64,000 nucleotides of DNA. It comes from Octopus vulgaris (taxonomy: Eukaryota). Below, in pieces: positions 23,801 through 46,372 of this stretch (position 1 is its first letter; each line of letters begins with the position of its first letter). Below the pieces are notes generated by a model. It was not told the DNA's origin. It saw nothing but the letters and a program-made list of their open reading frames with translations, and made no database searches. Both the position numbers and the translations under genes were made by a program. The DNA lies in the NCBI GenBank assembly GCA_951406725.2, contig OX597831.1, positions 56,792,001-56,856,000 of the forward strand, in the 5' to 3' direction.

Positions 23801-24205
23801 AGACAATATGTAGACTCTTGTTCAAGCAGAATGAGCAAGTGGTGATGCAAGTAGAAAACTAATGCAACAATGGAATGGAAGTAATGTATCTCAAAGGAAT
23901 TAACAAAGGGTTCAGTTTGAAATTCCAAGAAAATGACAGACATCTAATGAAAGAGAAATGGTATATTAGCAATCAAGATGAGGACACTAGTTCAAACGAT
24001 AATTATAATTTTTCATCTCAGAAACTGAGACAAAATTTAATTAAATATTTTCTGCAAAATAGAATATAAGTTTTTTAAATCAGTTCTCTATTTGCAAATT
24101 GTCTTTTTTTTCTTTTAACAGATTGTGAATTTATTACATGATGTCCAGTCAGGCAAGACGATCCCTGTTATTGAGGAAACTAGCACAGGCTGCACAATTG
24201 TATAA
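533..24205 (+). CDS. MIEN1: Paralog A: MIEN1/Rdx12-like selenoprotein, 106 aa, join(533..591,3499..3599,20484..20560,24122..24205); Sec TGA at 3506..3508
   Basis: Spliced translation [106 protein letters not shown]. All introns are GT..AG with consistent phases (2,1,0). Contains the Rdx motifs CxxU and AFEV-ING-LVFS plus a CaaX end like human MIEN1 (CVIL). SECIS lies downstream. Confidence 0.9.
750..1150 (+). mobile_element. Non-autonomous Helentron/HINE-like repeat
   Basis: Begins actagcagtatcgcccggcgttgctcggg (hairpin), has an internal direct duplication, ends tatatataaaga. A related start occurs at 15391. Confidence 0.5.
2352..2608. mobile_element. TIR element with internal (CCCTAA)n, copy 1
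   Basis: ggatcttt...aaaagatcc termini; matches 28562..28983 in the opposite orientation. Confidence 0.65.
2935..3345 (+). mobile_element. tRNA-derived SINE, full-length copy
   Basis: ggcgcaggagtggctgtgtggtaag head with A/B-box-like motifs, internal microsatellite, gaaacaagtaaaagag tail. Many copies in the window. Confidence 0.85.
3499..3599 (+). CDS. MIEN1: Paralog A exon 2 (Sec exon, (C)[33 protein letters not shown])
   Basis: ttttgtAG|C AAT TCC TGA GGC ... G|GTAAG. 101 nt, the same length as exon 2 of B and C. Confidence 0.9.
3644..3945 (+). mobile_element. Same SINE family
   Basis: Near-identical to 2935..3345. Confidence 0.85.
4210..4448. repeat. (TACA/CA)n microsatellite
   Basis: Direct inspection. 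Confidence 0.95.
4775..5152 (-). mobile_element. Same SINE family, reverse
   Basis: Reverse complement of 2935..3345. Confidence 0.85.
5850..6950 (+). mobile_element. Helitron PIF1-like helicase relic, disrupted
   Basis: Motifs [12 protein letters not shown] (Walker A), [45 protein letters not shown] and QFPVRLCFA, with stops and frameshifts. Confidence 0.9.
6980..7720 (-). mobile_element. RTE-clade LINE 3' fragment
   Basis: Reverse copy of the RT C-terminus and 3' UTR seen at 17880..19020. Confidence 0.8.
7740..8660 (+). mobile_element. Penelope-like element relic (GIY-YIG endonuclease region)
   Basis: [10 protein letters not shown] motif; at ~8300 [18 protein letters not shown]...[13 protein letters not shown]...HYHSFKNP, then a CxxC...E motif. 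Confidence 0.7.
9178..10372. repeat. (TA/TG)n compound microsatellite
   Basis: Direct inspection; source of spurious YI/VC ORFs. Confidence 0.95.
10685..11030 (+). mobile_element. RTE 3' UTR-derived repeat with (GAT)n tail
   Basis: ggcgttaggaagggcatccagctgtag...acgatgatgatg. Other copies at ~19982..20310, 22230..22675, 22850..23160(-) and 33750..34020(-). Confidence 0.75.
11270..11590 (+). mobile_element. Second tRNA-derived SINE family
   Basis: tagtggttagagcg...gtttgaatcc head, then cttgagcaagacactttatttcacgttgctccag. Related copy at ~59500..59770. Confidence 0.7.
11836..13969 (+). mobile_element. Sola1-like DNA transposase: 360-aa open N-terminal ORF (11836..12918), disrupted DDE region downstream
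   Basis: Cx[33 protein letters not shown]; then out of frame [30 protein letters not shown] and DSVHSVIE. Confidence 0.78.
13550..13778. mobile_element. piggyBac-type MITE (TTAA-flanked) inserted in the Sola relic
   Basis: TTAA|CCCTTTAG...CTAAAGGG|TTAA. Copies at 31379..31607 and 40820..41046. Confidence 0.85.
14555..15390. repeat. (TATC)n/(TA/TG)n compound microsatellite
   Basis: Direct inspection. Confidence 0.95.
15470..15664. mobile_element. hAT-like MITE
   Basis: cagtgtttctcaacctt...aaggttgataaacactg TIRs. Confidence 0.7.
16895..17160 (-). mobile_element. LINE ORF2 C-terminal relic (CR1/L2-like)
   Basis: [13 protein letters not shown]...[14 protein letters not shown]. Confidence 0.55.
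17160..17880. repeat. (TA/TG)n microsatellite
   Basis: Direct inspection. Confidence 0.95.
17880..19920 (+). mobile_element. Two degenerate RTE-clade LINE 3' segments
   Basis: [17 protein letters not shown]...[10 protein letters not shown]...RNEASML.WMCNV...WYGHV...GRGRPR.TW-type residues, plus (GAT)n tails. Confidence 0.85.
20484..20560 (+). CDS. MIEN1: Paralog A exon 3 ([25 protein letters not shown])
   Basis: Poly-T tract plus AG acceptor; CAG|GTCAGT donor; 77 nt; Rdx FEV/I-NG-LVFS motif. Confidence 0.92.
21670..22075 (+). mobile_element. SINE (2935 family), diverged
   Basis: Similarity to 2935..3345. Confidence 0.8.
24122..24205 (+). CDS. MIEN1: Paralog A exon 4 ([27 protein letters not shown]), CaaX
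   Basis: Pyrimidine tract plus ACAG acceptor; ends TGC ACA ATT GTA TAA. Confidence 0.9.
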   Translation: MVNLLHDVQSGKTIPVIEETSTGCTIV

Positions 24206-25147
24206 AACTAATGTTTTCCAGAAATTTCTACAATTGTTACACCTTAAATTCTTTGAGTTTTTTTTTCTTTCTTTTTTAATCTTAAATTAATATATATTAA
24301 AGATCCTGACTATTGTCTTCTTTTTTAAATCCTCATTGAACTAATATATAGATATGGACTGGCTTATTTTCCAGCATCATGGTATATCATACAACCTGTC
24401 TTGTCACAGATATTTACCCAGTATGTAATTGCTAATTTCACATGCTACCCACTCAGTATTTGCCCAATCAGCAGCAACAACAACAGTTCATCTGATTGAA
24501 TGAGTTAACTTTGTTCATTATTGGAAGATGTTGAGGTGTTTTCCACACAATGTATGTTATAAGCGGCACCTACAAGTGCGAGTTAATACTGAGTGGTCTG
24601 TTGTTATGGTAGATGGCCATTCTTAATTCAATGTGACTACAGGTATGTCTGCAGGAGGGTAGGTGTGTCTATGTAAATGGAAACACAGTGGATCTTGAAA
24701 GCTTCCATTTGTTGTATCCACTATGTTGCTCCTTGCTGCCTAGCATCAAAATATGTCACTTCTTCAATTAAGTGATCTAATTACTCTTTGCCTTCATGAT
24801 GAGGTGCTAATTAGCTTTACACATGTATTTTTTTTTTTGCCTTCCATATTCTTTCTTCTTTTTCTTCTTCTCATCTATTCTTCTCTTTTCTCTCCCTCTT
24901 CACATACTTATCATGATTCTATCTTTAAACTCCTTCTCTCTGCTCCAGCCGTCTTTTATGTTAAGTATTCTTTTTCTATTGTTACTCTTTTTTTTCTTAT
25001 TTCAAAGTAAATATGCAAAACGTTTTTAGTCAAGGGTGAATTCTAACTTACTCAATATCTTTCTTTTGAAAATTCTGTGTGTAACAGTTGTGGAACTAAA
25101 AATACTCTATATTGACTTTTAAAAAAAAGTTTTTTTTTGACTTTCTT

Positions 25148-25226
25148 ACTGGTTATTTCTCGTTATGAAAATTCTGGTCTAAACATGTATTGACCAGAGT
25201 TGGATAAATTGTGAGGAATAACCAGT
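25148..25226 (+). promoter_or_regulatory. SECIS element of paralog A
   Basis: Helix I actggttatttctc/gaggaataaccagt; ATGA at 25165; helix II aattctggtc/gaccagagtt; apical AAA; 3' GGAT completes the non-Watson-Crick quartet. Confidence 0.9.
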
Positions 25227-25619
25227 GAAAAAGTCGACTGAAAATGATTTATTTGGTGATTAAAATTTAAAATGAATATATCATGATTCAGTGTTGTTTC
25301 TTAATGATTTTTTTCTTCTCTTTCAATCTTCTTATCAGTTGTTTAATATTAATGTATGTAGAAAATGCGTACAAACCATGTCTGATATGGGGCCCCAATT
25401 TACTGGCATAGACTCATTTCAGGAGTTTTGAGACTTTTTTCAGGAGAGGCAATTATAACTGTCCTAGATTATTGTAACTTTAGTATATCATTTTTAGACA
25501 TCTAATAAGCTGACCTGCCAACGAATTTTTTTTTCTAGAATGAAGGAGACAGCTGTAACAGTTCCTTGAACACACCCTACTAAACACTGCTTGTCATAAC
25601 CGACTAGTTTGCAGAATGC

Positions 25620-26400
25620 AGTTGGAACATAAAGACAATTTGGAAGCTTTCTATACAATCAAGTTTTGTATTAAACTGGGCAAAATGCTACAGAAACCTG
25701 TGAAGTGCTTCAGATTGATTATGGATTAACTTGTATGAGCTGAGGTTCAAGGATGGTAGAGTGGGGGTGAGAAACAATGAGAGGTGTAAGAGGGAGAACT
25801 GGTTGAGAAACTTCACAGTTTTCTAGATGAAGACCATCATGTACCTATAAAGACAATAAGCATATAGTTTGGAGTTGAAGTGGCCCTTGTACACAAAATT
25901 ATTCATGTGCAAAATTTGGGAAGAGTTTGTTCCCAGGGTGCTCAGGGACAAACAGAAGGAAAGATGTGTTGCTGACAGCAGGGAGATGCTTGAGATCATT
26001 ACTACCAATACAAGAGTACTTGAGTCTCTGGCAACCTGTAACAAAAGCTGGATCTACTGTTATGATCTGGAGACTAAGAGAGCAGAGTACCATATGGAAG
26101 AGTCTTGGCTCCCTTAGACCCAAAAAGGCCTGGCAAAGCAAGTTCACCAGGAAATTCACAACGATTCCCTTTTTCGACAGCAAGTGCATCGTTTACATCC
26201 ACTGAGTTTCCTCTGGTCAGACAGTTAACGAAGAGTACTTTGTGGAGGTTCTGAGGGGGATCAGGAAGAGATATCATCACAAAAGGCCAGAGCTCTTCCA
26301 CTTGGGTTGGTGGCACCTGCACCAAGATGATGCACTAGTCCACAATTCCAACCTGGTAATGTAACCAACTACTTGACAGCGATGGGAATCAGCACTGTCC
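25620..26400 (+). mobile_element. Mariner transposase relic
   Basis: FVPRVL..QKE...SWIYCYDLETK..S..W..PKK; ends with a W.LHQDDA..H motif. Confidence 0.8.
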
Positions 26401-27804
26401 CTCAAAGCAGTGTTATAACTGTGGTTCAGTGACTGAAGCAAACATTAGCTGTGTTATGAATAACACAGCTAATATTGTATTCCAAAGACTAGCCTTCCTC
26501 ATCAGGAATTTTGGTTATATACTTTAGTTCTCACCCAGCTGTTGACTCTCCATGACATTCAAATAAAATACAATGTAATACTGTTGCCATATCTGGGACA
26601 ATGCTATTGCTACACACAAACATTTTAAACTACTTCTAAAAGAAGGTCAATCGATCTGGCTGACAAAGACTCTTTCACCAACACATTACCACCTCTGACT
26701 CATTGACACAAGCAATTTCTTCATTGTATCTCTTCTATCACTATGAGAATAATCACTCCTCTTCTGAACCAGCTGGTTGCATTGCACTTACCTTCCTCTT
26801 CCCCTCATGCCTTCACTAACTATTATGTTCCACTACTTCCTCCCCACTCACAGATGTTGGCTTTAGCTACAGGAAATATCAATTATATCAATCTCTTCAG
26901 CCAGGGATGGCTCTGCCCCTTCTCGGATAAACCTTAAAAAATAGAAACGAAAGAAAAATATTACACTATATACCAAAATGAAGTGACAAGCTTATAATGA
27001 ACAGTTCATTATTCAGTTTCTATTGTTCTTTTAACTGAGGTCAGCCCTGATTGAGCAAATCTTTGATCAAATGTATTCAAGGCTTGACCATCCAGTCTAA
27101 TTCATTCAAGAATTGCTTATCTTAAAGTATATTACTCAATGAGAGCGTCTCCCTTCCATATTTTGTAGAGATGTTATTTGAAGGTAGAGTTGGTTGTTAT
27201 TTTAGGATGATCAAACAATCACAAAAAGCATAGCTGTACAATCAATTTTCTAAATTCCTATCTGCAACTTCTTTTATTTAATTTTCAGTGCTAACATTCT
27301 TAGAAAAGAGAGAGTTTATTGAAATGCTTTACAGCCACCTTCACACATTTGATACCAAAGATTTCTTGAAAGATAGAGTACTTGAGATTTATAGGGAATC
27401 AGGAGTGGTATTTAAAACATTCCAAATATTTGATCTCACTATCATTCATTTGTTTAAGGGTTGTACTGGATAAATTGCGAAAATACTCAATTTCATTTTT
27501 ACCAAATAATTTAGGAAAATGAATGAATTATTTCCCTTGGTTTTTAAAATAAAATATATTAGATATAGATAAGGATTCCTTCCAGGGGCTGTATTGATTT
27601 ATTTTTCAACAATCTGAGTATGCCATGAGGTTTCCAGACATGAGTTCTACTCACATGTCAAGTTTCATCAAAATCGATAAAACGATGTACAAGTTAGCTA
27701 ACAGCTCCACAAACCCACCCACAGACAGAATTTCCCACATATGTAGTTGATATATATGTGAATTAGCATCTGTACATCTTTGTTACTCATTTATATATAT
27801 ATAC

Positions 27805-28215
27805 TGGTCGTTGACTTACAACCACAACTGGTTCCAACTGACTGGTTGTAAGTCAATTTTTGTCATAAGTTGACCTATAGGCCTACATAGCTTTGTTTTA
27901 TATTTTCTACATTCTTAAAGTACATTTTCAAGTAAAAGTCATGCACAGCATTCTGTATTATACTGGCATTAGTCAAAAATTTCGGAGTCTCGAGCAGTTG
28001 CCTTATAAACAAATATGAGGTTGCCTTGATGTCATCCAACACAGTGACAATTGATAACCAAACCTAGGGGAAGCATTTGTTAACTGACATCATCCATAGA
28101 TGGGTTAATTTCTAAGAAATTAAACCCATTAGATTTCAACTGGATTATTTATTATTGCTGCCTGGAATGGGTTGCCAATTGTTGTAAAGTTGATTGGTCA
28201 TAAGTCGACAATGAC

Positions 28216-28220
<5 letters not shown>
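27805..28220. mobile_element. Tc1/pogo-like MITE
   Basis: ggtcgttgacttacaacc ... ggtcataagtcgacaatgacc inverted ends in a TA context. Confidence 0.55.
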
Positions 28221-28258
<38 letters not shown>

Positions 28259-28561
28259 TGAGTGTTTGCCAAATCGTTTTTTTTTTTAAGGTGAGCTCAA
28301 CTCTGGTAAGCGACCACAACATAGGCTGAGGAAAAGGTATAAAGACTGTGTGAAAGAAAATCTGAAGAAACTAGATATGAACAAATGTGACTGGGAAAAT
28401 GATGTTCTAGATCGGAACAAGTGGAGAGGTGCTGTTAGGACTGGTTGCAATGCCTGGGAGGAAAAGATGATCTTGGACACCGACTACCTCTTATGACTCG
28501 TCATATGTCAAAAAACTCGGAAGACAATATCTGAAATTCAAAGACATAGTTCACAAAAACA

Positions 28562-28983
28562 GGATCTTTTCGGTTTGAACGGCAGTTTTTTCTAGCGGTG
28601 TCATATGAAATTGTCACCCATAATTATGACCCTAGTATCGATCTATTGCATTTCAATGTTTTAGGGTTAGGGTTAGTTTGGGGTGGGGGGAAGGGTATAT
28701 TTTTTCTTCACAAATGTAAATAAATCCAATCTGTTTCTTAAACGAGGGACATATTCATACGGCACAGAATGTTTTTTTTTACCTCAATACACGTCACTGA
28801 TTGGTTGAAATTGCAGAAATTGAAGAAAAAAAAACAACAAATATCTTACAAAGTATAGAATTTTCTCAATAAAGCCAAGAGAAAAAGATGTTTTATAAAC
28901 ACATTCTACCAGTATACGAAGTTAAAAATTTTTTAGTTACCTAGAAATTATGTTAAAAACTGCCGTTCAAACTGAAAAGATCC
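28562..28983. mobile_element. TIR element with internal (TTAGGG)n, copy 2
   Basis: ~27-bp TIRs ggatcttttcggtttgaacggcagttttt / aaaaactgccgttcaaactgaaaagatcc. Confidence 0.8.
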
Positions 28984-29214
28984 CGAAACCATTCCTCCAG
29001 AATCAGATTCCAAAGGGCAAAGATATAGAAGAAACTGGAATAATATCTGTCACCTGTGTTTTAAACTCTGTCAGTCAGCAGCTGGTCTTAAAAGTAATCT
29101 AAGGCTCATCAACAGAGTGATTGTGCTATGTGATGGTGTGTGGTGTGTGTGTTGATAGAACGGCTATCATCTTTCAAGAGTTGAGTTTACCACAAATAAG
29201 AACCCAGACAAGGA

Positions 29215-29628
29215 TACTTTTACTCTTTTACTTGTTTCAGTCATTTGACTGTGGCCATGCTGGAGCACCGCCTTTAATCGAGCAATTCGACCCCGAGACT
29301 TATTCTTTGTAAGCCCAGTACTTATTCTATCGGTGTCTTTTGCTGAACCGCTAAGTAACGGGGACATAAACACACCAGCATCGGTTGTCAAACAATGCCA
29401 GAGGGACAAACACAGACACACAAACACACACAGGCATATATATATATATATATATATATACATACATACGACGGGCTTCTTTTAGTTTCCGTCTACCAAA
29501 TCCACTCACAAGGCTTTGGTCGGCCCGAGGCTATAGTAGAAGACACTTGCCCAAGTTGCCACGCAGTGGGACTGAACCCGGATCCATGTGGTTGGTTAGC
29601 AAGCTACTTACCACACAGCCACTCCTGC
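29215..29628 (-). mobile_element. SINE (2935 family)
   Basis: Reverse complement match. Confidence 0.85.
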
Positions 29629-29919
29629 ACCTGGATTATTTTTTCGTTTTTTTTACTTAATTTTTGAGAGTGGTTGGGTTCATTTTTAGTATTCTTGTTT
29701 ATGTGAGCAGTCAAGTTTATTTCAGATATTTTCATTTTAAAAATCATCTCCAGTTAACCTTTGGGAGGACTTTGGTGTTGCCTTGGTGGAAGTTTGCACT
29801 CCCTGAGTGCTCTTGTAATTATAATTATTGTTGTTGTTATTATTATTATTATTAAAGGTGGTGAGCTGGCAGAATTGTTAACATGCCAGGAGAAAAGACA
29901 CACACATACACATATATAT

Positions 29920-30545
29920 TCTTTTATTCTTTTATTTGTTTCAGTCATTTGACTGCAGCCATGTTGGAACACCACCTTTAGTCAAACTAATCAACCCCAA
30001 GACTTATTCTTTGTAAGCCTAGTACTTATTCTATTAGTCTCTTTTGCCAAACCGCTAAGTTACAAGGGACAAAAACACACCAGCATTAGTTGTCAAGTGA
30101 TGGTGGGGGGTGGGGGGACAAACACATAAACATATACATACATATATATATATACAATGGGCTTTTATCAGTTTCTTATTTCTTTATTGCCCACAAGGTG
30201 CTAAACAAACAAAGACAGACAAAGGGACTAAGTCGATTACATCAACCCTAATGCGTAACTGGTACTTAATTTATCGACCATGAAAGGATGAAAGGCAAAG
30301 TCAACCTTGGTGGAATTTGAACTCAGAACGTAACAGCAGATGAAATACTGTTAAGCATTTTGCCCGGCGTGCTAACATTTCTGCCAGTTCACCGCCTTTT
30401 ATCAGTTTCTGTCTACCAAATCCACTCACAAGGCTTTAGTTAGCCTGAGGCTATAGTAGAAGACACTTGCCTAAGGTGCCACCCAGTGAGACTGAACTGG
30501 AAACCATGTGGTTGGGAAGCAAGCTTCTTATCACACAGCCATGCC
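29920..30545 (-). mobile_element. SINE (2935 family) interrupted by a Meta-domain-like SINE (~30180..30395)
   Basis: Nested insertion carrying a gcctttcatcctttc..gtcgataaattaagtaccag motif on the minus strand. Confidence 0.7.
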
Positions 30546-30556
30546 AATATATATAA

Positions 30557-31062
30557 AATTGTCACTAAACATGACTAGGGTGTTAAAAAAACACCTACAT
30601 TGCAAGGAATAAGAGCTAAAATGTTCTAATGCTGTAGTTAATGTACATGAAGGAGAACATATATAGTAACAGGGACCATAATTGTCTGAAAAATGCTGAC
30701 TGAAAATTCCTAAGACTGACATCAGTTTCTGTTATTTCCGTTGCCTCTTCAGTTAAGCCAGCTCAGTGTTCGGCTTCTTCTGGACCTGTTTCTCTAATAG
30801 TATATATGTTTTTGCCATCCAAACTAATGAATGATTTAGCTATTTGCTAATATGTATACACAAAATTAACATAAACAGAAGGAAATTGCCAAAACTTATG
30901 TTAGTGTTAAGAATTCTTGGTCAGCATTTTTTGGACAATTATGATCCCTGTTAGAGTATATGTTTTCATTCATGTGTGTCAACTACAATATTAGAGCGTT
31001 TTAGCTCTTATTTCTAGCAATACAGGTGTTTTAAAACACCCTGATCACATTTAGTGACAATT
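30557..31062. repeat. Foldback element, ~185-bp imperfect inverted arms
   Basis: aattgtcactaaa... (30557..30740) is the reverse complement of ...tttagtgacaatt (30881..31062). Confidence 0.8.
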
Positions 31063-31378
31063 ATAATTCTCCTTTTTGGTGAAATATTGAAATATTGCAA
31101 CCTGCTGTTTATATTGATTTTGTGAACTTGTGTTCAAAATGTTTCAAATGCTATGACATTAATTAATTAAAAAAAAAAATAAAAAGAGTGAAGCATGTGT
31201 TTGACAAAGTGTCTTAAGATTTACTCCTTTTGCCACAAGATGATGTGTAAATGAAAAATATCAAGGTGTGTGATGGTGGTGAAAAGTTGAGTTGTTGTCC
31301 TGGTTGAGCAGACAATATGAATAAAGGACATGCTAGCTGGGACCAGTCAGCAACTACATTGTCCCAGGTACCCTTCTA

Positions 31379-31607
31379 TTAACCTTTTAGCATTCAGATT
31401 ACTCTGTCAAATGTAATGCTTAGTTATTCACATTGTTTTGAATTAATTGTGCATTATCTCATAGTTTAGAGATTTCAGTGGTATAATTGTTCATTTTTAG
31501 AATGACATTGTCGAGTAGATGTGAGAGGCTGGATCTGGCTGGTTTGATCATACAATAAAGTAGAATATTTGGGCTGGATATGGCCAGTTTAAATGCTAAA
31601 GGATTAA
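31379..31607. mobile_element. piggyBac-type MITE copy
   Basis: TTAA-flanked; matches 13550..13778. Confidence 0.8.
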
Positions 31608-32806
31608 GATGGTAATCTATGATTTGATGGAGGTTTGGTAGATGTTTCTAGCAGATCAATTAATCATGTAAAAGGTGTCTAAATGTTATATACCAGAAAA
31701 CTGATGATGAAGACAACTGTTACTAATGTGATTACACTTTCAAGTAATTTAATTGATATCCAGGGTTTCTAGAGAATTTAGTTTTGGTGACAACATGTGT
31801 TCAACTCATTTAGAGGCACAGTCATTTTCATTGAGCTAAATCAAGATCTCCCCTTGACTTGATAATAATTCTATTAAAAATCTGAATTGATTATAACACC
31901 TCGTTTTTATTAGGTATATATATTTCTCCATCAGCCATTTGAATATCTTTTCCTCTTTCCAGGGTTTCTGTTGAGCCAAATAAACAGGGGAGTTATTGTA
32001 GGCTTTCTATGAAACTCAAGTAGGACAACATTGAAATGCTGTTCACCTGTCTCAGATGAAATTACTACTACACACCCCAAAATAGACTAAATCCAAAAGT
32101 TGGTCATTTGACTCATTAGGCATAATATTCACTCATCACCATGCTTCAGTTACTAGTTTACAATTGCCATATTTTTTCTAATTGCTCTTAACATCTCTAA
32201 CTAGACCAGTTCAATATACTTGCTTTTTTCTTGTTATCTCTACTGTAATCTCTACTTATCTCTACTGTAACCAACGTAACATCTCACATTTTTCCCCAGG
32301 CTCTGGAATCATATTACCTACTCAAAGGTGAGTATGAGGAGGCAGTAATCACCCCAGATGCAGGTGTGAAAGGGTATAAGAACTTTCTCTGGTTTATCAT
32401 GCCTGTTATTTAAGATAGAAGGCTGCCAAAAGTTCCTTTGTTCAAGGTACAAAGAGCCCTTGCTGCTGTTCCCACTTATAGTTTTCATGCAGATGCTGGT
32501 ATAAAGATGATCAACTTCAAATTTACCTGTCTAGGAGCAACTAATTAACTGATAAAAAGAAATAAAAATTCAGGTATGAAAAATATAAAACATAAAAGAA
32601 TATAAAGCCTAATAATTACTGAAGGAAGAACTGGAGGGAGTTAACAGGAATATGTCTCATTAACCCTTTTGACACACAGAGTGTTTTGGTATGTGTAGCC
32701 AAAAAGAGCAAAGTTTTTTTCTGAGATTGAAATTTATGGGTGCATGGAGAAAACAAAGGATAAAGTACATAAAACTACTTTATTAATATGTAAAATTATA
32801 TATATA

Positions 32807-33218
32807 GGCGCAGGAGTGGCTGTGTGGTAAGTAGCTCGTTTACCAACCACGTGGTTCCGGGTTCAGTCCCACTGCGTGGTACCTTGGGGAAGTGTCTTCT
32901 ACTATAGCCTCGGGCCGACCAAAGCCTTGTGAGTGGATTTGGTAGACGGAAACTGAAAGAAGCCCGTCGTATATATGTATTCATATTATATATGCATGTG
33001 TGTGTTTGTGTGTCTGTGTCTGTCCCATCCAACATCGCTTGACAACCGATGCTGGTGTGTTTATGTCCCCGTTACTTAGCGGTTCGGCAAAAGAGTCCGA
33101 TAGAATAAGTACTTGGCTTACAAAAGAATAAGTCCCGGGGTCGAGTTGCTCGATTAAAGGCAGTGCTCCAGCATGGCCGCAGTCAAATGACTGAAACAAG
33201 TAAAAGAGTAAAAGAGTA
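32807..33218 (+). mobile_element. SINE (2935 family), young copy
   Basis: Near-identical to 2935..3345. Confidence 0.88.
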
Positions 33219-34059
33219 TATATTATATAGTTTTATATCATATCGATTGAAAGATGATCTCTGATTGGCTATTACATTTCAAAATGTTTGTTTCATCAGG
33301 CCAATGGATTGGCCTCAAATTCCTTTCAGCTTGTATCACTTGGGCCAATCAATCAGCCCAGGTGTTGCGAGAGGTTTAATTAGCATTAATTAGTTGTTGT
33401 TTAACTCCTGTTTTTTTTTTTTTTTTGTGACTATCAAAGATTTACATAATTAGTCAATCGATTTTTGCTTAAAATAATAAGGTGTGACCTGAAAATTCTA
33501 GTTCAAGTGAACATAAAAAATGCTCTGTCATTGGCTTGCGTTCATTACTTCTTTATAACCTTTGTTGCTGGCTAATTCAGTATGAAGCAAAACCTGAAAA
33601 ATTCATGACATGATCAAGAATGTAGTTTAGTGTTAGTTTGACAAGAGGTGGAAGGATTTTTTAATGTACTATGACTACAAGTCACACAGTACAAAGAAGG
33701 AATTTTTCATGCAACAGAGTTAGGAATTTTTTTACATTTCAAGTTAAATCATCATCATCATCGTTTAGCGTCTGTTTTCCATGCTGGCATGGGTTGGACG
33801 GTGCAACTGGGGTCTGGGAAGCCAGAAGGCTGCACCAGGCCCAGTCTGATCTGGCAATGTTTCTACGACTGGATGCCCTTCCTAACACCAACCACTGCAT
33901 GAGTGTAGTGGGTGCTTTTTACGTGCCACCGGCACAGGTGCCAGACAAGGCTGGCAATTGGCCACAATTGGATGGTGCTTTTTACGTGCCACCAGCACGG
34001 AGGCCAGGCGAGGCTGGCAAAGAAATTATCCAATTACTTGTTTCTATTGATATAAAATT

Positions 34060-34620
34060 ATGCCTACCGACTGACCTACCTACCTACCTACCTCCCTATC
34101 TACTTACCTACCAACCTTCCTACCTACCTACCTACTTACCTACCTACCTACCTATCTACCCACCAACCTACCTACCAACCTTCCTACCTACCTACCTACC
34201 TTCCTACCTACCTACCTACCAACCTACCTATCTACCCACCAACCTACCTACCTACCAACCTTCCTACCTACCGACCTACCCACCAACCTACTTACCTACC
34301 TACCTACCTACCTACCTACCTACCTACCTACCTACCTACCTACCTATCTACCTACCTACCTACCTACCTACCTACCTACCTACCTACCTATCTACCTACC
34401 TACCTACCTACCTACCTACCTACCTATCTACCTACCTACCTACCTACCTACCTACCTACCTACCTACCTACCTATCTACCTACCTACCTACTTACCTATC
34501 TACCTACCTACCTACCTATCTACCTACCAACCTACCTACCTACCTACTTACCTATCTACCTACCTACCAACCTTCCTACCTACCTACTACCTACCTACCT
34601 ACCTACCTACCTACCTACCT
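34060..34620. repeat. (CCTA)n microsatellite
   Basis: Direct inspection; produces the PTYL ORF. Confidence 0.95.
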
Positions 34621-37086
34621 ATGTACATTATTCATACATACATCTCTCTCTCTCTCCCTTTCTCTCCATCCATCCATCCACCCATCAGTCCCTCCAACTA
34701 TCTGTCTCTCCAGCCATCCATTGTCATCATCATCATCATCATCATCATCATATGATATCTAAAAGTCAATGCTACTGTCTGCACAGAAATGTTGGAGAAG
34801 TTGTGAGGCCTTGGATAGACAGAATGTGCCAACGGAAGACAGTACGTCTTCCAACAAGGTCTCATTAGGCTAGGACAATCCAAGCATGGATGTGTGCCAA
34901 TCTCCATGATCATATTCCCCCAGATGCATAGACTCCTAGGTCATCCAACTGCAGTCCACTGAATTATTACGTAAGGGACATAGTCAAATGAAAGGTCAAT
35001 CAGCACCTCCGTTCAATCTCTCAAGTCAGCCACAACCAGCACTAAATACTAAAATAAAGATCATCTGACTTGGGCATGTTACTGCTTCTGACCCCATGCT
35101 GAAGCAGTCATTGATGCTAACAGTAGATTCATTGAATAGGTGTGATAAAAAGCATTCTCTAGATTATTTGTACTAATTTGTTTTCAAATACAGCTTTTTG
35201 ATGAGCTATGCATTTTTTTCTAAATTCATACAAACGACCTCAAAAACTATATGTACATGTATGTGTGCGTGTGTATTTGTGTGTGTGTGTGTGTATCTGT
35301 GTGTGTGTGTGTGTGTGCTTCTGTGTGTGTGTGTGTGTGTGTGTGCATCTGTGTGTGCTTTTGTGTCTGTGCGTCTGTGTGTGTGTGTTTGTCTGTACTT
35401 GTCCCCCATTCACTGCTTGACAGCTAGTTTTGGTGTGCTTACGTTCCTTTAACACAGCGGATCGGCAAAAGGAAACGATAGAATAAATACCAGACTTGAA
35501 AAAAAAAAAAAAAAAAGTAAGTACTGGGGGTCGATTCGTTCGACTAAGATTCTTCAAAGCAGTGCTAGGGGCATGACCACATTCAAATGACTTAAAATAA
35601 GTAAAAGAGAAAAAAAAAAAAAAAAAAAAGGACCCCCCCCCCGACCTCATTCTCCTCCTCTCCTCCTCCTCCTACTTCACCTTTGCGAACAAAACAAGCG
35701 AGACGCCGCACGAAGAATTAAAACAAAATTCTGTCTCTGAACGCCCTGCAGGCTGAAACTAGTTTTTGTTTGTGTAACACCAAATTCAAGTATAACATTT
35801 AATCATTAACCAAATATCGTAAGGTAAACGCGTCTAATTTTTATTTTCTCACATTTCTGAATGATTACCTTTTTCATTTATGTATTATACTTTTTTCTTT
35901 TTTTAAATCCCAAGGTATTTCAAAACTTTTCATGTCACACCAACCATAGTCTTACAGTCATGTGGCTACTTTTATTTCTTTAACGACTCCAAGGAAAACA
36001 TCGAGCAATGGCAGAGAAAGCCAATATAGTAAAAGTTATCCCAGCTTATACGCAAAATACGATGTAGTCTCCGTATATTTAGAAAGAGTTGGGGACCCGA
36101 GTGGTATTAAAATTCAAATGAGAGGAGCAAGATTCAATGAGAGACAGGAAGATCCGAACTGGCCGAAGTTCGGATTTTGTCTTTCGTCTTCTCTTCGGAA
36201 TCGATAAAATATATAAAAGTACAAGTCGATTAATGTGGTCGACTAACCGCTAACCTCAAAATTGTTGGCCTTGTACCTAAATGAGAAACTTAGTTAATAT
36301 CTATTTCAATCCATCAGTATGGCAGTCCAATACGGCAACGCCATCAGTTATTATGATTGATTTGGATTTGCGAGTTTTTTTTATTTATTTGTTTATTTTG
36401 TAGAATCGTAATTTATTTCGTTTAAAATAGAGTTCAGAAACAATTTGTGTGTGTGTGTGTAAGAGAGAGAGAGAGAGAGGGAAAGTTGGGTAAAATTACA
36501 GATTAACACCCGCACGATTTTCACTAAAAAAAACAAAAACTCGGATTTTTTGCGTGGAATCAAGTACCCTGACCTCCTAATATGCTGCAAATCCCATATT
36601 TTGGTTCGGAATTGGTCCAGTATGGCCATGGTCTAATGACTGAAGCAAGTAAAAGATAAAAGATTAGTGGATGCATACACATGCCTGTTGATGCACATTA
36701 TATCTGTATCAACAAAATGAAACTTGAAATTTAAAAATAAATTCTGATGTGTATCAGGGTGTCTGTGTGCAGATCCACTTTTTTTCGTTTTTTTTTTTAA
36801 CATTAAATTCTGATATAATTATAATCTACACCATCCATCTTAAATGCATTTGCAGAAAATTTCATTAATAATACACATTTTTCTGAAAGTTATAAGGAAA
36901 TAAAGTTGACTCTTGTGAATTTTGTGAAACTCCACCCACCCTGAAAAATTTTTTGCAATAAATTCTGTTATAATCACAATCAACACCATCTGAAGAACAT
37001 TTGTAGAAAATTTTATAAAAGAGATATATTTCGTTTTTGGATTTGGTTTACAAGATTCTTTATATGAGATTGTGTGTTGAAGCATA

Positions 37087-37366
37087 TTCTGTTGTGTCTG
37101 GGGAGAGTCATTTTCTTTTTGTGCCTTATAATGTAACACACTCACCAGTAAAATTTCCACTTCTTTCTTACTTTTATTTCCCTAAAATTTTTGTTGCATC
37201 TTGCAACTTTTTCAACAGTCTTTCAATAGTCAAGACTATTGAAAGGTTGCAAGAAGCAACAAAAATTTTAGGGAAATAAAAATAAGAAAGAAGTGGAAAT
37301 TTTACCGGTGAGTGTGTTACATTATAAGGCACAAAAAGGAAATGACTCTCCCCAGACACAACAGAA
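37087..37366. repeat. Near-perfect palindrome, ~140-bp arms, 2-nt loop
   Basis: ...tttcaatagtc aa gactattgaaa...; the arms give the same peptide on both strands in the ORF track. Confidence 0.92.
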
Positions 37367-37732
37367 AAGAGATATACATTTTCTGGAAAGTTTTGCAGAC
37401 ACAAAGTTTAAATGGGTGGCATATTTGTGTTGGTATGCTGAAAACTTATAGCCAATAGTACACTGTAACAAAAATGAAAAAGTTGAAATGAAAGAAAGGA
37501 ATTCTTTTAAAAGAATTATAATCTCTGATGTTCAAAACAAATATGATGGAATTTTAGGGGGAAAAAAAGTTACTGGTTGGGTACTTTTTTGCAAAACTTC
37601 ACCTTTAATTTTTTTTTATTAATTTTAATATTCAATACTAAAGTTTTTCATTTCACAATTCCTTTTTTCTTATTTAATGTTACAACATTTCTTCAGATCA
37701 GCAAAGTGTTATTTGATTTACCTCCAGCAAAA

Positions 37733-37944
37733 ATGTCAGAACATAGAAGCTCATGCTCAACATTTGATGGCACAGAAAAATCTTCTGTGTCACAAACAGA
37801 AAAATCTTCTGTGTCACAAACAGAAAAATCTTCTACGTCACGAACAGAAAAATCTTCTGTGTCACAACCAGAAAGATCTTCTGTGTCACAACGAGAAAGA
37901 TCTTCTATGTCAGAGAAACACCTTCGTGTGGAAATTGAATACTG
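37733..37944 (+). CDS. MIEN1: Paralog B coding exon 1 with Ser-rich repeat, ends VEIEY + split Cys codon
   Basis: ATG at 37733; donor TG|GTGAGT. An acceptor ttcttcAG at ~37696 suggests an upstream non-coding exon. Confidence 0.88.
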
Positions 37945-40900
37945 GTGAGTATTGTCATATATTTCTTAAAAAAATAATACTGACAGATGTGATTATGTGA
38001 TAAGAAGTTTGCTTCTCACTTACTTGGTCTTGGGTTCAGTCCCACTGTGTGGAACCTTGGCTTCTATAGCTCCAGGTCAGCTGAAATCTTGTGAATGAAT
38101 TTAATTGGCAAAAACTGAAAGAAGCCAATCATATACATATGTATGTGTGTGTCTTTGTATTTATTATCAACATGAAATTGGAGAAGAAATTTCAGGTGAA
38201 AAAGGAAGGTCTATATTCAAAAGGATTTAGAGTTAATTTGGCAAAGACCAAAGTCTTAATAAGTAGAAAAACAGACAAATCACAAATCTTTCAGGGAGAA
38301 AAGGTGTGGGTAAAAACTCCCTAAGGTGTACCTGGTGCAACCTATGGACACATAAGAGGAAGGTTAACAGAGAAAATAGTCTTTATGTGTGGCAGATGTG
38401 CAGGTACAATAAACACTTGGAATGTACAGAAAATAGACTTCATCAAATGCCTGGAGAGATACTTAGAAGTAGTAGATAGCTTCTGTTACCTAGGTTACTT
38501 AGCAGTGGAAGAGGATGCTCTAAGAGTGTAGCTACTAGAATATGAATGGGCTGGGCAAAGTTCAGAGAGCTACTGTTGTTGGTAACAACGGGGTTTCTCC
38601 CTCAGAGTGAAAAGCAGATTGTATGATGCCTGTGTGCAAACAGCTATGTTGCAGAGGACCTGCAAAGGCTTGAAATAAATGAAGCTAGCATGTTCTACTG
38701 GATGTGCAATGTGTGCATGTGTGACAGAGTATAAGTGTCTTAGGAGAAAAATTGGGTATCAGATACATCAGATGTAGTGTGCAAGAGAGAAGACTGTGCT
38801 GGTATGGTTATCTGATGTGTATGGACAGCTGCATAAAGAAGTGCTGATCTCTAATTGTGAAAGGAACCTGTGGAAGAGGTAAACCCAGGAAAACGTGGGA
38901 TGAGATGGGGAAAAGTGATCTTTGGATGTTGGGTCTCATGGAGGTAAGGACAATCGATCAAGCCTTCTGGCAAATTGCTGTGCGTGAGAAGACATGTCAA
39001 GCTAAGTGAAATTGTGGTCATGATCAGTGCTGGTGATGCATGAAAGGCATCTGTGCCAGTGACATGTAAAAGGCACCTGTGCCAGTGACACATTAAAGGC
39101 GCATGTGTTGGTTACACGTAAAAGACACTCAGTATACTTCATCAAGTGGTTGGCATTAGGAAGGGCATCCAGCTGTAGAAACCAAGCCAAAACAGGCTGG
39201 AGCCTGGTGTAGCTCTCTGGATTACCATCTCTGGTCAAACCGTCAAACTCATGCTAGTATGGAAAACAGATGTTAAATGATGATGATGATGCCATTGGAA
39301 GAGAAAAAAAAATGCTTAGTTTGTGTTTAGCCTTTTACTATAAAGCATTCAGTAATAATAGTTTCCATTTCTTTATTATGCCTTTCAACTTGATGTTAAT
39401 CTTAATGTTAATAATTCTGTTTGACATTGCATTACTTAGCCTGTTGGTAACACTTTCACGTGATTAGAGGGAAAAAAGAAAGAAAAGAGGGAGAGAGAAA
39501 GGTCCATGAAACGTGGCAGAGGGAATGTAATTGTAATGCTTTCACGTGATTAGTTGAAGGGAAAGAGAGGAGATAGAAAAAGGAGAGAGAAAAAGAGGAT
39601 ACAGTGAAGAGTGAGATAGAAAGAAGAAAAAAGTGGGAGAGAGAAGAGTCCAGGACATGATGTAGGGGGAATGTAATATTTATTACATGGTTAAAAAGTT
39701 AGTTGAAGGTAGAGAAGGAGAGTTAAAAATATAATTTTAGCAGAGGGGTGATGTTCTGATGGTGAGGTTAAAAAACGGGCAGAGAGAGAGAGAGAGAGAG
39801 AGAGAGATATGATGGTGGTGGTGGTGGTGGTGGTGATTGGATAGTGAAAAATGTATTTTTTTTTAATTGAACTAAGTTTTTTATCATTTACATTATTTAC
39901 AATTGATGGATATTTGTCCTCATCTTTGTTGTTAACATGTCTCGGATGATATACCCTCCAACCTTTATCAGGTGTCTTGGGGAAATTTCAAACCTGGGTT
40001 CTCATTCCTAAGGTATTTTTCATAGTGGTTAGGAGTGCAGGCTACTAACCCCAAGATTCCGAGTTCAATTCCAGGCAGTGACCTGAATAATAATAATAAT
40101 AATAATAATATTAACAACAACAACATCGAAAATACCTTAGGAATGAGAACCCAGGTTCTAAATTTTCTCAAGACACCTGATGAAGTCTTGAGGGTATATC
40201 AGCTGAAATGTTGTGTTAACAACAAACAAGATGAGGACAAATATCCATCAATTGTAAATATTGTAAATAATGTACATAATTCCTCATCTTTTAAATATAG
40301 AACTGTAGGTTTTTTTATAACCTATCACTTAACACATGCGTATGAGTACAATTCCATGAAATATTCAAGCTTATTTATGTGGCAGATATATGCAATTTAT
40401 CTAAAGGTTGCTTCATGTTCTTTTGTTCTTTTAGTAATTTGACTATGGCCATGCTGGGGCATGCTGAACAAATTTGTATTTGTCCCTACACTGGTTGATA
40501 ACCAGTGTTGGTTTTTTTACATCCCTACAACCTTGCAGTTCAGCAAAAGTGACCAATAAAATAGGTTTCAGCTTCAAAAAGAAACAAGTACTGGGGTTGA
40601 TTTGTCTAAGTAACCCCTTTAAGGCAGTGCCCAAGCATGGCTACTGTCCCATTACAATGAAAGAATAAAAGAATTGTCATCAACACCTTCAAAAATATTT
40701 GTGTGTGTGTGTGTGTTTATCCCCCTACCATCACTGATTGACAATCCTTGTTGGTTTGTTTATGTTCCCAAAACTTAGAGCAGTTTGCCAAAAACAGTCC
40801 AATAGAATAGACATCAGGCTTAACCCTTTAGTATTTAAACCGGCCATATCCGGCCAAAATATTTAATCTGTTTTATGTTCAAACTGATCAGATCCAGGCC

Positions 40901-43900
40901 CTCACACCTACCCTACAATGTGATTCTACATTAAGTAATTACACCATCAAGCTCTTGAAGATATGAGATAATACATGATTAATTCAAATCAATGGGAATC
41001 AATAAGCATTATGTTTGATAGAATAATCTGAACACTAAAGGGTTAAGCAATCAAGTTCTGGTATCAGTTTGTTCAACTAAACCTTTCAAGGTTGTGCCCC
41101 AGCATGGCCACAGCCCAATGACTGAAACAAATAGAAGATGAAAAGTAAAAAAATATTCAGTAAGTTCTGTAGAAACAAAGCTGGTGATGGGACATGCCAA
41201 CCTGCAGTTATGCCCCTTTGAGTCTATGTATTGTTTGTTAAAAGATTTTAATAATCCAGATTGTTAAAAAATTTAGTCTCATTTAGTAAATTAATATTGG
41301 TTTCAAATTTTGGCACAAAGCCTGCAATTTTGAGAGAGAGGGTAAGTCAGTTATATCACCCCTAGTTGTCAACTGGTACTTATTTTATTAACTGTGAAAG
41401 GATGAAAGGCTAAGTCAATCCTTGTGGTATTTGAACTGAATGTAAAGTAAGCCGAAATGCTGCTAAGCAGTAAGAAAACATACTGCTGAGCATTTTTCTG
41501 TGTAGTAACAATTCTGCCAGTTTGCTGCTTTAGAAAATTAATTAATACGAGCAGGACCTGTGAATATTTCGCGGAATTAATAGTAAACCTATTGGAGTAT
41601 TTCTGAGAACTTTTTCCAAAAAACCTGGAAGCGTAGCTTATGTTGTGTCTGTATGGAAAGACAGTCACTCATCTGCTACTCATTGAAAAATGAGAGCAAC
41701 TGGAATACAATGATTACTTAATGTGCTTTATATGTACACTTTACATACTCTATGCACAATTTTATAGATTTAATATAAAGCACTCATAAAGTAGATATTC
41801 ACTTTTATTTTTCCCTTTTTCGCAAAAGCAAAAAAATTCCCATACATATGATGCAACCTTTAGTTAAATTGTATATATCTGCCACATGAATAAGTGTGAA
41901 TATTTCACAGAGTTGCACTTATGCACATGCATTAAGTGATAGATGATATAAAAATCTTAGTTCATTTAGAAAAAAAATACACTTTTCATTATCCAATCAC
42001 CACCACCACCATCAGACTTGTGCCTTGGAGGGGACTGAAGGAGGTCGTTATTCTTTATTCTTTTAAACATTCATGCTAGGAAAATATATATAAAAAAAGA
42101 AATATAAAAAATTTCCATAGTGTAACATTTATCCTAGTAATATTCTGTAAACTAACTTCCTCTAGGATTTCTTATTTAATTTTAATTGATTAAAATGAAA
42201 TATGGAATGCTGTTAACTCCTTTATTTGTTTTAACTGGAGTTAGTCTTGTACATAAGGATTTGTTCTTATTGTTAATTTAAGAGTTCTTAGCTCATTAAT
42301 TCATTGTTAGAGCATCAGACAATGCTTTGCAGTATTTGTTCTGACTCTACACTCTGAGTTCAAATCTCACCAAGGTCAAATCTGCCTTCCATCCTTTTGG
42401 GGTCAATTAAAAATTACTAATCCTAGGCAGTGAGGTGGCAGTGTAGATGCTAATCCGAGGCATCAGAGTAGCACTTTGTGTTTTGAGTTCAAATCCTGCC
42501 ACAGGTTGTAGACTTAGTTGCCTAGTTTAACACCACTATCTGGTACCTGAAGTACCTGTAGCAGTGACTACTCTATTGCAATCGCTTGGGCTAAATTTCC
42601 CTGGTTTGAGGATACCTAAACCAATCTAAGAAGCCCTGTAATGGGTCATGGGCACTGCCTTCCCTCCTGATAGAAAATAAAAGAAAGAAACTTCAAATGT
42701 GCTAGTGTCTACATTTATTGTTTTGGGGCTCAGCAGTTATTTTCACTTAACCTTTTATAAATTAATAGGAAAACAAAAATAATTCTTAAGAGATCGTGTT
42801 TTAACTTCTGGGTCAACAAGAACAAGGTAGATAAATCATAGAATTACTTAACTTTGAATTATTTGAAAGAAAACTTAAAGGAAACTTTTAGAAATTTATC
42901 AAAACAATAACTGAAATAAAAGATTAAATCCCTATGCTAAATTATTGTGAAAAATAATTTCTGATGAATGATATTTTGTAATTATATATTTATCAAAATT
43001 GATGTAATTATCTCTCTATAACTTTGCTTTTTAAAATATTTTCTTGGTAATTGTGTGATGTGAACTTTTCTGTAAAATATTGTGTGATGTGAACTTTTCT
43101 GGAAAATATGTGAAAGGAAATTAAAGGGGTGATTGTTTCTCAATGAAAACACAAATATAAAAGAAAAGTAAAAGAACAGAAGAAAAAGAAAATCAATTAA
43201 TATTGTCTTGTTAAATTTAACTTGGGCAGTGGACTGGTAGAATTATTAGCATCTCTTTGCAGCATTTCTTCTGACACATTACATTTTGAGTTCAAATTCC
43301 ATTGAGGTTGACTTTGTCTTTCATCCTTTCAGGGTAAATAAATTAAGTACCAGTCAAATATTGGAGTCAATGAAATCAACTAGCCTCCTCAGAAAATTTC
43401 AGGCTTTGTGCCTATAATAGAGAGGATTATTAAATCCAACTAAGAAGCTCATTAAAGATTACTGGTTATATATATATGATGGGCTTCTGTATAGTTTCTG
43501 TATGTAAAATTCTGATTGTATTTAGTTTGAGAAGATCAAATCATATGTGTTTGTGATGTTTGTTAAAGTGGTAAAAAATTTTTTTTGATATAGATGTTTG
43601 TATTATTTATAAAAAAGATGGTTGCATAAAAAAATGCCAATCACTTAAAGTGAAGGGAAGTTGTGGAAGAGGATAACCCAAGAAGACATGGGACAAAGTA
43701 TTGAAGGCTGATTTCAAAATGCTGGACTGAGATATGTGGTGCATTGCTGTTACCTAGGAAGACCCACTCACCACAGCAGAATTGAGATCTTAAAACCAAG
43801 GTGTCCTGTAAAAAGCATTGGTGTGTGTGCTGGTGCCTCATAAAAAGCACTGATACTGTTGCCATGTAAAACACACTAGTCATGGTGCCACATAAAATGC

Positions 43901-46372
43901 ACTGGTGCTGGTGCCACATAAAAAGCACCCAGTACAGTCTGTAAAATGGTTGGCATTAGGAAGAAGATCCAGCCATAGAAATCTATCCAAAACAGACTAT
44001 GGAACCTGGTGCATCCCCTGGCCATGCCATTTCCTGTCAAGACAGCCAACACATGCTAGCATGGAAAATGGATGTTAAAAGTTGATGATGATGATAAAAA
44101 TGTATACTAAGTAGGAGCAGTGAATATAAAGAAAACATTTATCCTTATTTCCTTTTCCACTTCGAGACTAAAATGACATCTCAATTTTTTAATTCATATC
44201 TTCTCTAGCTATATTCCTCATTAACCTGTTACAGTTATTCTAAGACAGTATATTTGATTTTGTCTTATAGCCAATCCTGAGGGGGTTGGAAACGGATGGA
44301 ATCACTTCGTAAAGCCATTTACAGAGAGTTTCCTGAAGCCAGAGTAATGGATACTGTTAGCAAGAAACGTGGTATGATATATTTTTTTCATTCTGTCATG
44401 CAACACAAATATTTTGTAACTAAAATACTGAAAAAATTTATTGTTTTTCTTTCATTAGAATTGTGGGTTTTTCAATGTAATATTTTTCTTGTACATTTAT
44501 TTAACTTTACTGGAATCAAAATTGTTTTCAAAGGTTTTCTTAAATTATTACCTAATAATATTTATTAAGAAAGCTCTTTGATTCAATATATTATGTGTAA
44601 ACATCTTTAATTGGAATTCTTTAAATTTTAGGTGCCTTTGAAATTAGTATCAATGGAAAATTGGTTTTCTCTCATCTTGAGAGTTGTTGTTACCCCGAAT
44701 CTGAAACGGTCAGTATTTCTCATTTCATTTAGACTTTTATTATATCTGGTTTTGAGTATAATAATTTTTTTACTGTTAGACATGGATGAAACAACTCACC
44801 TCTGAAGGTAACAAAGGGCTTCTCCCTCAGAATGAAAGGCAGATGGTATGTTGCCTGTGGGCTATGACCACAGAGGATATGCGAAGGCTTGAAAGAAATG
44901 AAGCTAGTATGCTTTGCTAGATGTGCAATGTCAGTGTGCATGAGTGACAAAGCATATGTGTCTTGAGGGAAAAACTGGATGTAAGAGGCATCAGATGTGG
45001 TGTACAAGAGAGACAAATGCATTGGTATGGTCACGTGATGTGTATGGATGAGAACAGCATGCACGCACACACATGCACACACACATGTATACACATTCAG
45101 TTTCTGTTTACCAAACTCGGGCTTTGGTTTGTCTGGGGCTATAATGGAAGAACGTACCCAAGATGTTGTACAGTGGGACTGAACCTGAGACCACATGAAT
45201 GGGAAGTAAGCTTCTAAACCACACAACCACTTCTGCACCTATAAAACCTATAAAATTAATTGCACATTTTAATAAATAAGACTTCTATGTAGATACAAGA
45301 TATAGACAATTTATCTTGACATGAAGATAATCTTTGAACTGTTAAAAAGAAATATTCCCACCTGCAAATGAACTGTATTGTTTAAAATGAAAAATGTCCA
45401 TATTTGATGCTCCATATTTTCTGGTTAATTTCCATTTTAGAAGAATTGGTAAGAGAAATTATTTCTAAAATCTGTTAACAATGCTGATGTTACTGAGGAT
45501 TTTATTCATGTCGAGTTTCACCAGAGTTTACACTGGATCTGTTTGTTATATTTTCTGACTTCTTTGGAGAATTTAGCCTCAGTACTCAAAGCTGATATAA
45601 TTTGCTAATTATAAATTACTTGTGTTGCTTATGATAGTGAGCTAGTCCATTAAAACATAAGTACCTTTGTTATTCATGCAATGAAATACCAATGTCAACA
45701 TCTAAGTTGTGGATTTGTGAGTTGGTATCTTAGTGACTCACTCAATCAGATGTAGCCTTATTGAAGTACCAATTAAAAGAATTCTTAATATGCTATGATA
45801 ATGTAAGGTGGTGAGATGGCAGAATTGTTTGCATGCTTAAGGCGGCGAGCTGGCAGAAACGTTAGCACGCTGGGCGAAATGCTAAGCGGTATTTCATCTG
45901 AGTTCAAATTTCGCTGAGGTCGACTTTGCCTTTCATCCTTTCGGGGTCGATAAAATTAAATACCAGTTATGCACTGGGATCGATGTAATCGACTTAATCT
46001 GTTTGTCTGTCCTTGTTTGTCCCCTCTATGTTTAGCCCCTTGTGGGCTGTAAAGAAATAAGAATTGTTTGTATGCTTAGTAGCATTTCTTCTGTCTTTAT
46101 CTTCTTTGTTAAAATTCTACCAGGGTCAATTTCGCCTTTCATTCTTCAAGGTTGATAAAATAAGAACCAGTTGAGGAATGGGGTTGATATAAGTACCTCC
46201 AAAATTGCTGGCCTTGTACTAAAATTTCAGTATTTAAACTTTTAATTATTTTAATTTCTGTATTAGCATTTACATTCTTTTTTAATAGGTTGTGGCTCTG
46301 TTACATGATGTGCAAGATGGCAAGAAACCCCCTGTAGTTGAGCGATCTAATTCCAGGTGCACAATTCTATAA
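37733..46372 (+). CDS. MIEN1: Paralog B: MIEN1/Rdx12-like selenoprotein, 157 aa, join(37733..37944,44271..44371,44632..44708,46289..46372); Sec TGA at 44278..44280
   Basis: MSEHRSSCSTFDG(TEKSSVSQ-like x6)KHLRVEIEYCQSUGGWKRMESLRKAIYREFPEARVMDTVSKKRGAFEISINGKLVFSHLESCCYPESETVVALLHDVQDGKKPPVVERSNSRCTIL*. GT..AG introns; exons 2-4 have the same lengths as in A (101/77/84). Confidence 0.92.
37772..37915 (+). repeat. Coding 24-bp tandem repeat, 6 units (TEKSSVSQ-like)
   Basis: acagaaaaatcttctgtgtcacaa units, in frame. Confidence 0.95.
38180..39290 (+). mobile_element. RTE-clade LINE 3' fragment
   Basis: GFRVNLAKTKVL..., same family as 17880, with (GAT)n tail. Confidence 0.82.
39884..40300. mobile_element. 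Inverted pair of Penelope-like terminal repeats
   Basis: 39884..40020 is the reverse complement of ~40128..40275; contains ctgatga...gaaa. Confidence 0.6.
40820..41046. mobile_element. piggyBac-type MITE copy inside a SINE
   Basis: TTAA|CCCTTTAG...CTAAAGGG|TTAA. Confidence 0.85.
44271..44371 (+). CDS. MIEN1: Paralog B exon 2 (Sec exon, (C)QSUGGWKRMESLRKAIYREFPEARVMDTVSKKR)
   Basis: tcttatAG|C CAA TCC TGA GGG ... G|GTATG; 101 nt. Confidence 0.92.
44632..44708 (+). CDS. MIEN1: Paralog B exon 3 (GAFEISINGKLVFSHLESCCYPESET)
   Basis: ttttAG|GT GCC TTT GAA ... ACG|GTCAGT. Closely matches human MIEN1 GAFEIEINGQLVFSKLE. Confidence 0.93.
45805..46220 (+). mobile_element. Nested Meta-domain-like SINEs
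   Basis: ggcggcgagctggcagaaacgttagcac...gcctttcatcctttcggggtcgataaa. Reverse copy at ~63010..63220. Confidence 0.7.
46289..46372 (+). CDS. MIEN1: Paralog B exon 4 (VVALLHDVQDGKKPPVVERSNSRCTIL*), CaaX
   Basis: tttaatAG acceptor; ends TGC ACA ATT CTA TAA. Confidence 0.9.
   Translation, partial: VVALLHDVQDGKKPPVVERSNSRCTIL

Follow-up and report, generated by a model that had tools for sequence, protein, structure and literature searches.

Two genes in a 64,000-nucleotide (nt) stretch of the Octopus vulgaris genome (contig OX597831.1, forward-strand positions 56,792,001 to 56,856,000; here called the window, with positions counted from its first letter) probably encode redox proteins that combine selenocysteine (Sec) with a lipid tag. 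Genes A and B are spliced members of the SELENOW2/MIEN1 group ending in a CaaX box, and their products are predicted to be Sec-containing, geranylgeranylated and partly membrane-bound. They belong to a cluster of four genes (A, B, C and D) that extends across ~103 kb. A and B have four exons each, every intron is bounded by GT-AG, and the only internal stop in either reading frame is one TGA, which occupies the identical position in all four paralogs.

Gene models and C-terminal motifs of A and B

Gene A lies on the + strand. Exon 1 (533..591) opens with ATG and ends within the Cys codon of the CxxU motif, and exon 2 (3499..3599) holds the in-frame TGA (Sec23, 3506-3508) in the motif CNSU. The Rdx core is encoded by exon 3 (20484..20560; PF10262 24.2 bits, cut-off 22.6), and the coding part of exon 4 (24122..24205) ends with CTIV (24191-24202) and TAA (24203-24205). 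The product has 106 amino acids (aa) and a pI of 4.5. The joint between exons 3 and 4, which skips 3561 nt between GT and AG, was recovered in all four contig sets, drawn from four studies, and one X2 contig runs through exons 3 and 4 and the untranslated region as far as 25278, including the hairpin discussed below. None of the few variant letters among contigs over exon 4 falls in a CaaX codon. Genome searches, whose counts are lower bounds, yielded no processed copy of A.

Gene B, likewise on the + strand, comprises exon 1 (37733..37944), placed by homology and splice sites; exon 2 (44271..44371), with the TGA (Sec74) at 44278-44280 in the motif CQSU; exon 3 with the Rdx core (44632..44708; 17.3 bits to PF10262 for the exon alone); and the coding part of exon 4 (46289..46372), with CTIL at 46358-46369 and TAA at 46370-46372. 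Its 157-aa product is longer than that of A, and at 37772-37912 exon 1 contains 5.9 tandem copies of a 24-nt unit, which stay in frame and give a Ser/Thr/Glu/Lys-rich N-terminal extension, of which A, C and D have none. Splicing of B and use of its CaaX exon rest on database models of proteins. The RefSeq Octopus sinensis "MIEN1-like" protein XP_029645637.1 equals B after the UGA (78/78 residues) and ends in CTIL, while a B-type orthologue from a Logan contig is identical at 52/78 residues and ends in CTIV. A tblastn search across 184 kb revealed no alternative exon-4 homologue inside A or B.

The initial annotation had described A and B as selenoproteins ending in CTIV and CTIL. Both ends were found directly before TAA in AG-bounded last coding exons of 84 nt each, and the reading frames reappeared as CxxU motifs with an in-frame TGA in GT-AG gene models accompanied by hairpins resembling the Sec insertion sequence (SECIS). 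Its interval, 24122..46372, encloses both CaaX ends; the TGA of A lies far outside it. The annotation had overlooked that the CaaX box is a trait of the MIEN1-type family and that paralogs C and D have lost it.

Both tetrapeptides satisfy the CaaX consensus, with an aliphatic residue at a2 and L, F, I, M or V at X. Ends of the form C-x-[ILV]-[LFIMV] closed 25 of the 5242 stop-ended segments in the six frames of the window (0.5%), which gives the chance rate. Across A and B, human MIEN1, a thrips protein and three database proteins of octopus type, the Cys and the stop keep the same register. Since the orthologues end in CIIL (A-type) and CTIV (B-type), the CaaX box has survived while a1, X and the flanking residues have changed.

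By sequence, A and B are Rdx-family genes assignable to the SELENOW2/MIEN1 branch. A full-length A orthologue from a Logan contig (P0119; 90/106 residues identical, end CIIL) matched PF10262 (54.5 bits) and TIGR02174 (63.3 bits) over cut-off, as did P0009, the RefSeq model corresponding to B after the UGA (31.5 and 41.6 bits). P0119 reads W at the TGA position, which is probably the TGA read under another code. Residues 11-106 of P0119 align with residues 23-117 of human MIEN1 (2LJK) at an E-value of 4.3e-11, placing CIIL on CVIL, compared with an E-value of 0.25 against mouse SelW (2NPB). An AlphaFold model of P0119 (mean predicted local distance difference test score, pLDDT, 80.8; residues 100-106 below 50) superimposed on 2LJK with a template modelling (TM) score of 0.70, and SelW-type structures were also matched.

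Human MIEN1 (also C17orf37, C35 or Rdx12) thus has its fold in common with the A orthologue, aligns with it end to end with one gap and with the CaaX box in register, and is acidic like A (pI 4.4; PMC3527542). It differs in carrying Cys, as amniotes do, where A and B carry TGA/Sec, and the octopus genes form a cluster of four. A duplication of SELENOW2 in jawed vertebrates has been proposed as the source of MIEN1, which carries Sec in fish and Cys in amniotes (PMC13134290). SELENOW2 is described as a selenoprotein that occurs in invertebrates, fish and frog (PMC3316567, PMC13134290); these proteins and fish MIEN1 are CxxU Rdx selenoproteins, as predicted for A and B. All invertebrate genes of the group have been placed in the SELENOW2 branch, where lineage-specific duplications are common (PMC13134290), and flatworms possess several SelW2 copies (PMC3828610). 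SELENOW1 (mouse SelW) and prokaryotic SelW-like proteins share the Rdx fold and CxxU with A and B but are more distant than MIEN1, and the CaaX tail was present in 0 of 23 metagenome loci. The MIEN1-like thrips protein KAJ1527688.1 has an Rdx domain and a terminal CILS in register, although its redox motif is CxxC rather than CxxU and X is Ser.

Among 112 homologue matches, six ended in Cxxx and four in a canonical CaaX, namely the three octopus-type proteins and the thrips protein. The ends CFMT and CWFK were rejected as CaaX boxes, being non-canonical and in prokaryote-like proteins. The single-sequence homologue searches returned P0002 only, and three of the seven matches of a representative search were judged unrelated or fused. 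Exon-4 fragments were misaligned in two alignments (A1 and A2) and were excluded from the search profile. A PF10262 search of the 2.8-Gb octopus genome gave no match, for which the shortness of the exons is the probable reason. In most of the 23 metagenomic SelW-like loci, CxxU contains an in-frame TGA, with Asn-Tyr frequently coming next; the corresponding database proteins stop short at this TGA, and the loci look mostly prokaryotic.

Selenocysteine recoding

In alignments, the TGA falls on the second Cys in both human MIEN1 and the thrips CxxC. Downstream of all four genes, the Rfam model SECIS_1 matched at 32 (A), 22.1 (B), 29.6 (C) and 20.8 (D) bits, with E-values of 4e-4 for A and 0.13 for B. 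The hairpin of A (25157..25217, + strand; AUGA...AAA...GA) lies ~960 nt past the stop, and the one predicted for B (48835..48894, + strand) follows the stop by ~2.47 kb. The hairpins have the core motifs and helices, with pairing in 95.8% of helix cells over the set of four. Fold z-scores were -7.0 (A), -4.3 (B) and -5.9 (C), and the SECIS region of B is 76% identical to that of A over 252 nt. These matches emerged only in scans of narrow regions; in a scan of the whole window, the matches listed (150 of 229) comprised microsatellite noise only. Nine matches to the tRNA-Sec model exceeded the Rfam cut-off in the genome, and the TCA anticodon was found in all three of the top loci checked. Taken together with the gene models, we regard Sec recoding of the UGA in the predicted octopus selenoproteins as highly probable.

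About 250 nt around the SECIS-like hairpins (25022-25302, 48737-48983 and 53839-54095) are 75-84% identical between paralogs, compared with 54-67% for coding exons 2-3, and the lower helix is unusually long.

The CxxU site is missing from every protein model found in databases for B, C and D, and those of B and C begin downstream of the Sec codon. Models that start past the UGA are a frequent mis-annotation of selenoprotein genes (PMC13134290). The database model of D (P0033) has a wrong-looking N terminus and skips the Sec exon.

Prenylation, membrane association and selenium supply

Human MIEN1 is geranylgeranylated at CVIL, and the modified protein is reported to associate with the plasma membrane's inner leaflet (PMC6738349, PMC10878790). 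CTIL, the end of B, is both required and enough for OAS1 to be geranylgeranylated (PMC8357416). Geranylgeranyltransferase type I (GGTase-I) takes substrates with L, F, I, M or V at X (PMC11304957). In a yeast screen lacking farnesyltransferase (FTase), scores at 25 C were 0.063 for CTIV, 0.071 for CTIL and 0.040 for both CVIL and CIIL, compared with 0.63 for CILS and 1.09 for CASQ, and its authors take depletion as canonical geranylgeranylation (PMC11304957). Extending that reading, CTIV would be geranylgeranylated, while the thrips CILS, as judged by its score, is unlike a canonical GGTase-I substrate. Overall, prenylation of A and B is predicted to be very likely.

In the mechanism that we propose, the SECIS would recode the UGA to Sec, and the protein would fold into a thioredoxin-like domain of SelW type that has a flexible tail. 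GGTase-I would then geranylgeranylate the CaaX Cys, after which aaX would be cleaved off and methylation would occur, as in human MIEN1. Through the lipid, the proteins would associate reversibly with membranes at their cytosolic face, B more strongly than A, as the 20 residues ahead of the CaaX Cys include four basic residues in B and one basic and three acidic residues in A. There, proteins close to the membrane would have their thiols reduced or isomerised by the CxxU.

Several observations weigh against parts of this reading. None of the four SECIS_1 scores reaches Rfam's gathering score of 35, and the hairpins showed covariation within the range of shuffles (36-139 of 500). The contig sets that support the splicing of A are presumed RNA, compared without a silent control stretch; in a search for sequencing runs, no matching run was recorded as RNA, and its listing was not counted towards expression. 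The gene tree was built without vertebrate sequences, and its deeper branches are unresolved. The FTase-null screen used the yeast enzyme and was marked by low read counts and an indirect read-out (PMC11304957). With regard to the membrane, A is an acidic protein without a polybasic tail or other second membrane signal, endogenous human MIEN1 is described as mainly cytosolic with membrane spots (PMC3527542), and a shortened OAS1 (the common part) fused to CTIL stayed cytosolic and nuclear (PMC8357416).

The observations on localisation would also suit an alternative in which A and B are prenylated selenoproteins yet mostly soluble, with the lipid serving protein-protein contact or shielded by a carrier. 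The retention of TGA and a SECIS-like hairpin by C and D, which have no anchor, is consistent with it as well. However, the reported presence of geranylgeranylated MIEN1 at the inner plasma-membrane leaflet and the four basic residues in the tail of B argue against it, and we consider a mostly soluble pair rather unlikely. The initial annotation had taken A and B to be lipid-anchored at membranes. Geranylgeranylation, as the likely part of that proposal, is upheld by the OAS1 and yeast data, whereas firm anchoring is less sure because A is without a polybasic tail. Substantial membrane residence of the two proteins is somewhat favoured on these grounds.

The initial annotation had also suggested that membrane targeting would depend on selenium, such that selenium supply decides whether active protein reaches the membrane. 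As the CaaX box lies downstream of the UGA, the anchored form does need recoding. However, the UGA, at residue 23 (A) or 74 (B), precedes nearly the whole fold, and termination there leaves 22 residues in A or 73 in B, the latter mostly low-complexity repeat, so that no folded protein would remain to be targeted. The UGA also lies 168 nt ahead of the last exon junction; under the 50-nt rule, a stop that far before the last junction invites nonsense-mediated decay. Moreover, any selenoprotein with an early Sec would show the same dependence. Selenium would thus set the abundance of the proteins and not their location, and low selenium would lower the amount of all four proteins without relocating them. 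Selenium-controlled relocalisation of A and B is therefore very unlikely, and the claim was not sustained.

It is more improbable still that the UGA acts as a stop and that Sec-less proteins of 72-78 aa, begun after it, serve as non-enzymatic lipid-tagged adaptors: RefSeq P0009 and the models P0002 and P0010 do start past the UGA, and B has an ATG five codons beyond it, but A has GTG at that position, the short form would be without the first strand of the modelled fold (residues 14-19, preceding CxxU), such mis-annotation is frequent as noted above, and all four paralogs retain exon 1, the Cys, the TGA and the SECIS-like hairpin.

Paralogs C and D and the origin of the CaaX tail

Paralog C lies on the - strand of the window. 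Exon 2 (58839..58939) has the in-frame TGA in the motif CDAU, exon 3 (57295..57371) matched PF10262 with 18 bits, exon 4 (56045..56116) ends in SKKE followed by TAG (56053-56051) with no CaaX, and the SECIS-like hairpin is at 53900..53963. Exon 1 was located ~2.6 kb past the window end, and the product has 108 aa. A vestigial Cys codon remains in register two codons after the TAG, and the database protein P0002 has the same C-terminal end. Paralog D (contig C18, ~56881061-56895426) lies 25-39 kb past the window end and encodes 87 aa with the motif CQAU, followed by a SECIS-like hairpin. It ends in KAVH at a TAA five codons ahead of a vestigial CSTL, and database models agree with these ends.

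C and D thus keep the TGA and the SECIS-like hairpin and have lost the CaaX box through stops just upstream of the vestigial Cys. These stops are at different places, which is compatible with one loss or two. From the sequences, the loss in C and D appears to have followed duplication, and both proteins would be soluble. The paralogs share just 37-56% of residues in exons 2-3, so the duplications that formed the cluster are not recent. In the tree, A paired with P0119, B with P0012 (with weaker support) and C with its own retrocopy, the rest being open.

This retrocopy, processed and truncated, lies on contig C4 (~101.51 Mb; L014:723-1632) and has exons 1-2-3 of C joined as modelled. It has kept the TGA and is broken in exon 3 at a TA run. 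Just upstream of it is an inverted piece resembling the 3' region of C (window 55204-55838). The database model P0003 fuses the first 30 residues of the retrocopy to an upstream gene.

Human, insect and mollusc proteins end in register, and the CaaX tail is for this reason most likely inherited and ancestral to the bilaterian subfamily, as judged from the aligned ends, and not an octopus invention. The sample behind this view is small, and fish C termini are outside it.

Three further features were observed in the window. A 363-codon open frame in intron 2 of gene A (11827-12918, + strand) is transposase-like by eye, with a weak Pfam match below cut-off. A broken PIF1-type helicase remnant at 5850-6950 (+ strand), likely of Helitron type, has a weak match to PF05970 below cut-off. 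Downstream of the SECIS-like hairpin of B, an AT-rich satellite of short degenerate units occupies 49093-51200.

Sec in SELENOW2 and in fish MIEN1 is known already, as is geranylgeranylation of human MIEN1. A and B are therefore new members of a known subfamily, with a lipid tag known from its human Cys member. The available text of the SELENOW2 and selenoproteome papers (PMC3316567, PMC13134290, PMC3828610) holds no mention of prenylation or CaaX. Among the papers listed in literature searches, with most subscription journals outside their scope, there was no report of Sec and CaaX in one protein or of this cluster, and no paper with CTIV and CaaX together. What is freshest in the finding is that the paralogs divide into tagged and untagged ones, and no new mechanism is indicated.

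Membrane selenoproteins such as SELENOK, SELENOS, SELENOT, SELENON and the deiodinases rely on transmembrane helices. A prenylated selenoprotein, if true, would bring a Sec redox centre to a membrane's cytosolic face in a reversible manner. We tentatively suggest, at somewhat short of even confidence, that SELENOW2/MIEN1-type proteins have formed an overlooked class of isoprenoid-anchored selenoenzymes since early bilaterians, a class that in the octopus cluster is split into two lipid-tagged and two untagged members. In the cluster, paralogs that carry the anchor are matched by others that lack it; if this reading is true, the cluster would be a natural experiment on what a Sec redox centre does when placed at a membrane, and on the role that MIEN1, a cancer protein, had ancestrally.

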